42,544 nucleotides of DNA, taken from a virus. Taxonomy: Duplodnaviria > Heunggongvirae > Uroviricota > Caudoviricetes. The DNA lies in IMG/VR virus record IMGVR_UViG_2718218358_000001, positions 1 through 42,544 of that record, one strand, 5' to 3'. Shown in pieces: positions 1,690 through 41,536 of this stretch; position 1 is the stretch's first letter; each line of letters begins with the position of its first letter. The translations under genes were made by a program, and so were the position numbers. The notes below the pieces were generated by a model. It saw nothing but the letters and a program-made list of their open reading frames with translations, was not told the origin of the DNA and did not search any database.

Positions 1690-1704
1690 TGGTGTCCCCT
1701 GCAG
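1690..1704. repeat. att core copy at the torI-proximal prophage junction (TGGTGTCCCCTGCAG)
   Basis: exact 15-bp direct repeat of 41462..41476, which is the 3' acceptor/CCA end of argW read on the plus strand. Confidence 0.7.
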
Positions 1705-1777
1705 ACATCTACTTGAAGCGGCAGGGGATTGATTGGAATGGTGTTTTTTAGATGTGATAAATATTTTACCCGCTATT

Positions 1778-1978
1778 TTACCCATTGGCGCGGCTTAAGA
1801 GCTTATTTTTGAATTCACAATGGTCACGATATAACCATCTTGCTCGTCCGTGGATAACTTTGGCTTTAGGCAGGTCTCCGGACTTAATCCGGTCATAGAT
1901 GAAGGTCTTACCAAAGCCAGTATCAGCCATGATGAATTTCAAATCAACCAGTGAATCAGGTTGTAGTTCGTGTTGCAT
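1778..1978 (-). CDS. torI: excisionase / recombination directionality factor, TorI type (AlpA/Xis-like winged helix)
   Basis: 66-aa ORF MQHELQPDSLVDLKFIMADTGFGKTFIYDRIKSGDLP... recognised as TorI of the E. coli argW prophage remnant; lies at the prophage end opposite the integrase. Confidence 0.85.
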   Translation of the reverse strand: MQHELQPDSLVDLKFIMADTGFGKTFIYDRIKSGDLPKAKVIHGRARWLYRDHCEFKNKLLSRANG

Positions 1979-1997
1979 GAGTGCTATCTCCGAATAG

Positions 1998-2013
1998 GGA
2001 ATCGAACCTGCAA
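1998..2013. repeat. second tRNA-derived 16-bp repeat (GGAATCGAACCTGCAA), identical to the argW T-arm segment at 41476..41491
   Basis: exact 16-bp match; sits 20 bp upstream of the torI start codon, whereas at the other end it directly abuts the 15-bp core. Confidence 0.5.
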
Positions 2014-2020
2014 ATCAGGC

Positions 2021-2043
2021 AATAAAAAACCGCCATCAGGCGG
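2021..2043 (-). terminator. rho-independent terminator (minus strand)
   Basis: hairpin CCGCC-TGAT-GGCGG followed by a T-run on the minus strand, just downstream of the last early-left ORF and upstream of torI. Confidence 0.5.
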
Positions 2044-2203
2044 CTTGGTGTTCTTTCAGTTCTTCAATTTGAATATTGGTTACTTCTGCATGTGCTATCT
2101 GCGCCCATATCATCCAGTGGTCGTAGCAGTCGTTGATGTTCTCCGATTCGATAACTCTGTTGAATGGCTCTCCATTCCATTCACCTGTGACTCGGAAGTG
2201 CAT
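2036..2203 (-). CDS. hypothetical small protein (55 aa)
   Basis: ORF-track ORF trimmed to the first ATG (track start is a TTG codon); weak SD; last ORF of the early-left operon. Confidence 0.35.
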   Translation of the reverse strand: MHFRVTGEWNGEPFNRVIESENINDCYDHWMIWAQIAHAEVTNIQIEELKEHQAA

Positions 2204-18038: not shown

Positions 18039-18362
18039 ATGAAGATGCCAGAAAAACATGACCTGTTAGCCGCCATTCTCGCGGCAAAGGAACAAGGCAT
18101 CGGGGCAATCCTTGCGTTTGCAATGGCGTACCTTCGCGGCAGATATAATGGCGGTGCGTTTACAAAAACAGTAATCGACGCAACGATGTGCGCCATTATC
18201 GCCTGGTTCATTCGTGACCTTCTCGACTTCGCCGGACTAAGTAGCAATCTCGCTTATATAACGAGCGTGTTCATCGGCTACATCGGTACTGACTCGATTG
18301 GTTCGCTTATCAAACGCTTCGCTGCTAAAAAAGCCGGAGTAGAAGATGGTGGAAATCAATAA
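18039..18362 (+). CDS. S: holin (lambda S type, class I; dual-start MKM)
   Basis: 107 aa; [34 protein letters not shown]... essentially identical to remembered lambda S. Confidence 0.9.
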
Positions 18363-41300: not shown

Positions 41301-41461
41301 GGGTAAAAATCCGGTGGGTAAAATTATTTTATCCACTTTTTACCCGTCATGGAGTGCGGCTGTCAACGATCTGAAGCGAACCATGACGAACTGTGAATCT
41401 ACGGAAGGCTTGATATTCAGGGGATTTTGCGGACTGGTACGGATGGGAGCGAACTGATAAA

Positions 41462-41476
41462 TGGTGTCCCCTGCAG
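41462..41476. repeat. att core copy at the intS-proximal junction, inside the argW 3' end
   Basis: exact match to 1690..1704. Confidence 0.7.
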
Positions 41477-41536
41477 GAATCGAACCTGCAATTAGCCCTT
41501 AGGAGGGGCTCGTTATATCCATTTAACTAAGAGGAC
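41462..41536 (-). tRNA. argW: tRNA-Arg (anticodon CCU), argW
   Basis: minus strand reads GTCCTCTTAGTTAAATGGATATAACGAGCCCCTCCTAAGGGCTAATTGCAGGTTCGATTCCTGCAGGGGACACCA; cloverleaf with T-loop GGTTCGATTCC and terminal CCA. Confidence 0.85.

Follow-up and report, generated by a model that had tools for sequence, protein, structure and literature searches.

The integration and excision modules of KplE1 (CPS-53), HK620 and Sf6, which act at the tRNA gene argW, serve as the reference for recombination modules with uncoupled genes for the integrase and the recombination directionality factor (RDF). In KplE1, the published att core is 16 nt long (CTGCAGGGGACACCAT), intS and torI lie at opposite prophage ends, and the TorI sites, with the cores GTTCG, GATCG and GTCCG, are separated in attL by a gap of 12 nt between I1 and I2 and by gaps of 2 nt within I3-I5; the arm-type sites have TAAA in common and overlap PintS, which IntS and TorI repress from these att-embedded sites (PMC2951348). 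According to the same authors, excision is controlled mainly via the RDF gene (PMC2951348), and no cis element controlling torI is described in the accessible literature. Here we analysed a stretch of 42,544 nt (IMG/VR record IMGVR_UViG_2718218358_000001, positions 1 to 42,544; the window hereafter), which holds a ~40-kb prophage with Kapi1, Sf6, HK620 and IME10 as its nearest relatives. Directly before torI it carries a short copy of the argW T-arm, here called the T-loop box, which is probably a control element not described before.

A tRNA-derived T-loop box before torI

The window possesses two exact copies of the 16-mer GGAATCGAACCTGCAA, one in argW (41476-41491) and the other in the torI leader (1998-2013). 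For any exact 16-mer that the tRNA gene (75 nt) has in common with the remaining sequence of the window, the chance expectation is ~1.2e-3; as well, neither the 16-mer nor the 15-mer of the att core has extra copies in the window with up to two mismatches, and 0 of 100 shuffles gave two matches with either pattern. Chance was therefore rejected as the source of the 16-mer, and the preliminary description of this DNA was right to regard it as a genuine phage-borne, tRNA-derived sequence. A phage-encoded tRNA or tRNA remnant upstream of torI was also rejected, because ARAGORN detected argW as the sole tRNA gene of the window and none in 22 related loci. The invariant core of the box, GTTCGATT, corresponds to tRNA positions 53-60, and GTTCGATTCC to positions 53-62, which abut the core in attB. 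The box has the sequence of the half-site that lies immediately left of the overlap region in attB, and TTCGAT is common to the box and the consensus attP C half-site. Different lineages retain different ends of the T-arm, namely TTGC at the 5' end in E. coli and CCTG at the 3' end in Serratia (L015) and Pantoea (L018), which jointly cover tRNA positions 46-63 and point to the tRNA as the origin of the box. Moreover, a derived C after TTCC is common to most lineages, suggesting a single origin followed by retention rather than repeated copying of the tRNA.

The distribution of the box was followed by way of TorI homologues, which came from 24 genomes at species level, ~170 contigs of viruses and several free phages. 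An exact argW T-arm stretch of 10-16 nt, ending 17-23 nt before the RDF ATG, is present in 12 of the 23 genome-derived modules (window included), and over all loci the distance between box and ATG is 15-23 nt. The form GTTCGATT(C/T)CC was found in about half of the sampled argW-type modules, in genera that include Escherichia, Salmonella-type, Erwinia, Pantoea, Serratia, Citrobacter, Enterobacter and Edwardsiella, and also in most Emek-type modules, in phiEt88 and in Midgardsormr38. The box is thus retained across three RDF types: TorI, the Emek-type protein (52% identical) and that of phiEt88 (39% identical). Of the 16-mer singled out in the preliminary description, it is GTTCGATT(C/T)CC that is kept, while the TTGC end varies among relatives (TTCC, TCAT, TGAC, CAAG and CCTG). 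Pseudomonas F116, in which the gene layout is different, has no T-loop motif.

Such a sequence could be a neutral scar, either of a 30-nt tRNA-derived attP segment split by the insertion of torI, or a mere chance match, without any present function. Its clear derivation from the tRNA with different ends in different lineages would be compatible with this explanation, as would the many modules that have no box and the single-base variants seen in 5 of 80 E. coli prophage copies. The comparison of lineages argues otherwise: between eight of them taken pairwise, the 13-nt box differs by 7%, against 50% at the 4-fold degenerate torI sites. Among the non-coding blocks of 14 diverse leaders, GTTCGATT alone is invariant, the spacer varies, and the sequences 5' of the box cannot be aligned between lineages, leaving the box as the only invariant island amid unalignable flanks in many genera. 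Within E. coli prophages, at least three unrelated upstream contexts are joined to the same leader. A neutral scar also fits poorly with the derived C, which indicates one origin and retention, with the chance expectation of ~1e-3, and with the real core, which has a T-loop remnant of its own in register, so that nothing has been split. On these comparisons a scar is improbable, and the box is most likely kept by purifying selection. Coding constraint by an overlapping open reading frame (ORF) was rejected, since the reading frame differs between the E. coli and Emek-type contexts.

In the Erwinia phage Midgardsormr38 (L113), whose excisionase gene starts at 2201, a tandem pair of boxes, CAGGTTCGATTCCC-GT-CAGGTTCGATTCCC, with a period of 16 nt, lies ~50 nt upstream of that start. 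Short contigs recorded as metagenome-assembled genomes of Actinomycetes and Parachlamydiaceae (L014 and L031) also carry torI modules of the enterobacterial type that contain the box, an assignment to phylum that is probably due to contamination or mis-binning.

The preliminary description had pictured the repeat at the torI end as one 30-mer interrupted by a stretch with torI. We took 40 distinct attP/attR flanks of related modules and set the 14 nt abutting the overlap against the tRNA in register. T54, T55, G57, A58 and T59 match the tRNA in 75-97% of these flanks, positions 60-61 are nearly always GT where the tRNA has TC, TTCGAT is kept, and the consensus flank is ATTCGATGTC, followed at the boundary by TGCAGGG; the E. 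coli C flank, AGTAGATGTC, is a more decayed version of this T-loop-like sequence. Because an in-register T-loop-like sequence still abuts the core, the 16-mer upstream of torI is, judging from these flanks, a second tRNA-derived copy and the real core retains its own degenerate T-loop, which leaves no place for a split 30-mer. A longer contiguous tRNA block in Klebsiella phage Chronis, indicated by a BLAST extension to 41488, was rejected, as the sequence there is the degenerate C flank and not an intact T-arm.

The same region contains an inverted repeat, TCCCCTGC(A)...(12-26 nt)...(T)GCAGGGGA, in which the P-arm segment (1704-1727) pairs with the left part of the core (1690-1703) and the T-loop-like C flank sits in the loop. 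In a survey that included loci L009-L022, L113-L116 and L124-L203, a stem of at least 7 bp was present in 41 of 55 distinct flanks, and the repeat covaries with the core (CCCCTACA/TGTAGGGG in L020 and TCCCTGCATA/TATGCAGGGA in L021). In RNA form, the repeat would look like an acceptor/T-arm minihelix and would sit at the 3' end of torI transcripts.

Candidate functions of the box

The 16-mer was rejected as a crossover core or identity block, because free phages carry it ~300 bp from the junction, and both the attP and the empty-site junctions coincide with the 15-mer. An attR of 135 bp is enough for excision in vitro (PMC3509656); its inner primer maps to window positions 1782-1801, ~200 bp short of the box. 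The box is therefore not needed for excision in vitro, and a place of the 16-mer within the recombination site proper was rejected, since it is absent from this working attR substrate.

As the box occurs in phages with unrelated backbones, whatever binds it must, on this distribution, come either from the module's own genes or, as a conserved factor, from the hosts. All box-bearing modules have the argW attB in common, while their arm-type and RDF sites differ, which makes the core-binding and catalytic domains of the integrase the most economical candidate. We tentatively favour the reading, which has a good chance of being correct without reaching the level of the probable, that the box is a second tRNA-derived segment selected as a cis-acting element in the RDF leader, outside the recombination site, with the integrase as the most economical binder. 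In this reading, the core-binding and catalytic domains would recognise the box as a mimic of the attB left half-site, and integrase on this decoy in the torI-leader DNA would hold RDF expression down until strong early-left transcription overrode the repression. Such a restraint would complement the known repression of PintS by IntS and TorI. A more far-reaching proposal, possible but doubtful, is that phages of this family might have turned this fragment of their target tRNA gene, an exact copy of the left half-site of attB, into an RDF-leader operator through which the integrase gates RDF expression.

A number of observations weigh against the integrase reading. Much more variation is tolerated in the attP C half-sites (TTAGGT, TGTGAT, GTAGAT) than in the box, whose near-invariance may thus need more than integrase binding to explain it. 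A core-type half-site on its own is usually a weak site for heterobivalent integrases, as established for lambda Int. GTTCG, the core pentamer of the TorI sites, is contained in the box, and the case against TorI leans mainly on the phiEt88 lineage. Chronis, EhrS_49 and the loci L017, L019, L020 and L024-L030 have no box, and since about half of the related modules are without it, it is dispensable. In some cases, such as L014 and L175, a common leader may stem from a recent exchange of modules and not from conservation in independent lineages. Finally, every recovered module has an argW-type core, and the sample holds no second target tRNA in which covariation could be followed.

The presence of GTTCG raises the alternative that the box is an operator for TorI itself, which would bind upstream of its own gene and autoregulate; the preliminary description, too, had offered the 16-mer as a possible RDF binding site. 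GTTCG is among the mapped TorI cores together with GATCG and GTCCG, TorI is a known repressor of PintS, and Emek-type P' arms also have GTTC(G/T) repeats. This assignment is disfavoured by phiEt88, which keeps the box despite different RDF repeats, its P' arm being without repeats of the GTTCG type. In addition, the conservation reaches ATT(C/T)CC, which is absent from TorI sites, and the usual 5' CA is missing; TorI acts cooperatively on phased arrays, whereas there is a single site here; the boxes of Midgardsormr38 are 16 nt apart, not 10; and the leaders of TorI-type and Emek-type modules are near-identical although the proteins are only 52% identical. We consider a TorI operator rather unlikely.

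The argW-type attP of Erwinia phage phiEt88 (L116, 2407-2673) and of Salmonella phage Emek (L115, 2398-2667) has arm repeats of GGGCATA instead of GGGTAAA. The P' arm of phiEt88, a module with the box, has presumptive RDF repeats of the CGATGTAACC and GCGTTACCC types and no GTTCG. In both phages the core and the T-loop-like flank are kept, which amounts to a naturally occurring exchange of arm and RDF specificities around an unchanged core.

A serious alternative, though still an unlikely one, is that the box acts in RNA, as a mimic of the T-loop, as part of a Rho-utilisation site, or by weak pairing of AUU(C/U)CC with GGAGAU in the Shine-Dalgarno region, and so controls torI translation or read-through. 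A consensus scan found no sigma-70 promoter in the interval from the terminator to torI, and torI is therefore probably read from upstream transcripts, which would suit such a role. Menouni and colleagues are said to have described Rho control of torI expression (PNAS, 2013). The distances from the box to the Shine-Dalgarno sequence and the ATG are fixed, the leaders are C-rich and G-poor in many lineages, and a T-arm-like hairpin is possible in a few of them (L015, L021-L023 and phiEt88). Set against this, RNAalifold gave no consensus pair in the 14 leaders, and the E. coli leader folds no better than shuffled sequences (z = -1.1), on which grounds a conserved hairpin or sequestration of the Shine-Dalgarno sequence was rejected. 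The partner of the T-stem varies as well (CAAG, CCTG, TCAG), and Rho sites do not require an invariant 11-mer. A known RNA family was likewise rejected, as Rfam returned sub-threshold hits to STnc130 and STnc420 only, driven by the terminator hairpin.

Within torI, codons ~11-21 (~1915-1948) carry GTTGAT(T/C)T(G/C)AA(A/G)TTCATCATG, which is nearly invariant in nucleotides (alignment A2). The near-invariance covers most synonymous positions in genera whose other 4-fold sites are ~50% different, and this stretch might contain an embedded element or owe its conservation to strong constraint on codons or structure.

The depositors of HK620 and Sf6 annotated a cII-binding site and a putative 'phage integration' promoter in this leader, according to which the box would be part of a lambda-like, cII-activated pI promoter. 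The annotated TTGC-N5-TTGC overlaps the 16-mer, whose 5' end is its second TTGC, and the homologous place in H19J and Stx1a is a genuine pI box, TTGCGTGTAATTGC. Lambda-type modules hold this genuine box, running into xis, at that place, and the annotation in HK620 and Sf6 therefore appears to have been made by analogy. Lambda cII sites are TTGC-N6-TTGC, whereas the spacing here is N5. Moreover, many E. coli prophages have TTAC or TTTC in place of the first TTGC, neither TTGC is kept in genera outside Escherichia although the box is, and no -35/-10 consensus was found in the scan. A promoter upstream of the whole RDF gene would also have the RDF made during lysogenisation, the opposite of the logic of lambda pI. 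A cII-activated promoter is thus very improbable.

Homology to H19J, Stx1a and 933W ends at the terminator-like hairpin at 2024-2046 (alignment A1), which marks a mosaic boundary with lambda-type and Stx phages. The junction between the early-left operon and the integration module lies at this terminator and the first TTGC (2010-2046, as seen in L006 and L008, i.e., Stx1a_11KH263 and H19J). Beyond it, lambda-type modules have their own pI box and xis, and argW-type modules have the T-loop box and torI. The depositors of Sf6 labelled this stretch 'boundary sequence bsq2'.

The argW module and its att core

By its sequence, the module of the window is the known KplE1/HK620/Sf6 argW recombination module (IntS/TorI), since the integrase, the identical RDF, the TorI sites, the arm repeats and the -35 element all match (Table 1). 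The gene intS adjoins argW, is transcribed away from the tRNA and, at the nucleotide level, is 95-96% identical to int of HK620, Sf6 and CUS-3; its product has the arm-binding, central and catalytic domains of a P4-type tyrosine integrase. TorI had no match in Pfam or NCBIfam at the thresholds applied; it is identified by a full-length alignment with PDB 1Z4H, the Tor inhibition protein, and by 100% identity to HkaC/gp18/TorI of HK620, Sf6 and others. The TorI sites equal those of the published KplE1 attL in number, core sequences, spacing and arrangement in two blocks. The GGGTAAA repeats at the torI stop codon are kept in all relatives, and the HK620 annotation has an attP repeat there.

Table 1. 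Coordinates of the features of the argW module in the window
Feature	Position	Strand	Basis or remark
att core copy, torI end, CTGCAGGGGACACCA on the tRNA-sense strand	1690..1704	-	host DNA left, phage DNA right
P-arm segment adjoining the core	1704..1727	-	C flank and left arm of inverted repeat
C flank AAGTAGATGTC, degenerate T-loop register	1704-1714	-	
Left arm of inverted repeat, CCCCTGC	1721-1727	-	pairs with core GCAGGGG
Two IntS arm-type repeats, GGGTAAA	1765-1771 and 1777-1783	-	overlap the torI stop codon
torI, RDF, 66 aa	1778..1978	-	ORF list
torI Shine-Dalgarno region, CGGAGAT	1986..1992	-	read from sequence; kept in leader alignment
Conserved T-loop box CAGGTTCGATTCCC, functional heart of the 16-mer	1997..2010	-	conservation before RDF ATG
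16-mer TTGCAGGTTCGATTCC, argW positions 46-61	1998..2013	-	same in Sf6, HK620, Kapi1 and KplE1-type E. coli loci
TTGCCTGATTTGC, HK620-annotated cII-binding site, putative 'phage integration' promoter	2010..2022	-	depositors' annotation, HK620 and Sf6
Intrinsic-terminator-like hairpin, end of upstream early-left gene	2024..2046	-	8-pair stem and T run
intS, P4-type tyrosine integrase, 385 aa	40143..41300	-	Pfam Arm-DNA-bind_3, Phage_int_M, Phage_integrase
P' arm	41301..41454	-	arm-type repeats, PintS -35 and TorI-site cores located in sequence
Three GGGTAAA-type arm-type repeats, P' arm	41301-07, 41316-22, 41339-45	-	
PintS -35 (TTGACA)	41361-66	-	
Five TorI-site cores, P' arm	41367-71 GATCG, 41377-81 GTTCG, 41387-91 GTTCG, 41430-34 GTCCG, 41450-54 GTTCG	-	
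att core copy, intS end	41462..41476	-	makes 3' end of restored argW
argW, tRNA-Arg(CCT)	41462..41536	-	ARAGORN call; tRNA-Arg adjoining yfdC in E. coli genome annotation
T-arm of argW	41476-41491	-	origin of repeated sequence

The 15-mer TGGTGTCCCCTGCAG is exact at 1690-1704 and 41462-41476. The duplication is thus one nt shorter than the published core (15 of 16 nt), owing to a different first base of the argW trailer in this strain. In free Sf6, HK620 and Kapi1, window position 41476 is joined to 1690 via one copy of the 15-mer (in Sf6, the intS-end match stops at record position 18114 and the torI-end match starts at 18100), and the depositors of HK620 and Kapi1 annotated this join as the attP core. 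Moreover, of 5426 complete E. coli genomes, 1415 contain an uninterrupted match, 99.8% identical, to a synthetic empty site made of the left flank, one 15-mer and argW. The CTGCAGGGGACACCAT-type core is accordingly duplicated at both junctions and single-copy in the attP of Sf6 and HK620 as well as in the 1415 empty sites.

The preliminary description gave the blocks as 1690-1704, 1998-2013, 41462-41476 and 41476-41491, the gap as 293 bp and torI as 1778-1978, all of which are exact. Its comparison with the empty argW locus and its attP junction could both be carried out in silico, and they agree with a prophage boundary at the 15-mer; its choice of the 15-mer as the crossover block is borne out by the same junctions and empty sites. 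It also placed attP between torI and intS, in accordance with the free-phage junctions and with what had already been published. The crossover core, the position of attP and the order torI-attP-intS are hence already known, and nothing in them is new.

A small ORF on the minus strand (1654-1785) is annotated across attP in free phages, as gene 17 of Sf6, hkaB of HK620, ORF36 of Midgardsormr38 and orf47 of Emek. It begins in the arm-type repeats (ATGGGTAAAATAGCGGGTAAAATA) and is cut by integration, and it looks like a by-product of the conserved att sequence, not a gene.

Of the flanking host genes, the left one codes for a LacY-family permease and the right one (yfdC in E. coli annotation) for a protein of the formate/nitrite-transporter family. 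On the torI side (1-1689), the permease lies where K-12 has dsdC-side sequence, and the published attR-XbaI primer, which targets the latter, has no match in the window, indicating that the region beside argW is strain-variable.

Comparison with known systems

Newly reported here are the T-loop box of the RDF leader and the finding that it is conserved across Enterobacterales, whereas core, att geometry and module all belong to what was known before. The accessible KplE1 literature and the annotations of Sf6, HK620 and Kapi1 make no mention of a T-arm copy upstream of torI, although a prior mention is possible. A box of 11-14 nt that is invariant from genus to genus and stands directly before torI is a concrete target for mutagenesis and binding assays, and it would represent a piece of the target tRNA that selection keeps outside the functional att site. 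If the integrase reading is true, the leader would hold a feedback loop built from att-site DNA, and if the principle is general, other tRNA-targeting modules should have a copy of the loop of their own target upstream of their RDF genes.

Compared with the KplE1 (CPS-53)/HK620/Sf6/CUS-3 module, the window has the same integrase, an identical RDF, the same core, the five TorI sites, the arm repeats overlapping PintS, and attP between the gene of the RDF and that of the integrase. What differs is that attR in KplE1 is taken as ~135 bp ending inside torI, and the T-arm copy upstream of torI is undescribed there. With lambda pI, the leader shares its equivalent place at the end of the early-left operon, and H19J and Stx1a have the terminator and the first TTGC in common with this phage. 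Unlike lambda pI, the repeat here has a spacing of N5, is unconserved and is placed upstream of the RDF gene as a whole rather than within it, with a conserved T-loop box downstream.

The attP of this family resembles other tRNA-derived attP identity blocks in carrying the tRNA 3' end and, beside it, a degenerate in-register T-loop. The box differs from such blocks because it is ~300 bp away, outside the minimal att, contains no crossover segment and is more strictly kept than the core-side half-site. Lastly, the proposed logic would mirror the control of PintS by IntS and TorI, where a recombination protein on att-type sequence likewise controls the partner gene of the module. For PintS, the operators are arm-type and RDF sites within attL, whereas the putative operator here would be a core-type, attB-like half-site outside att.

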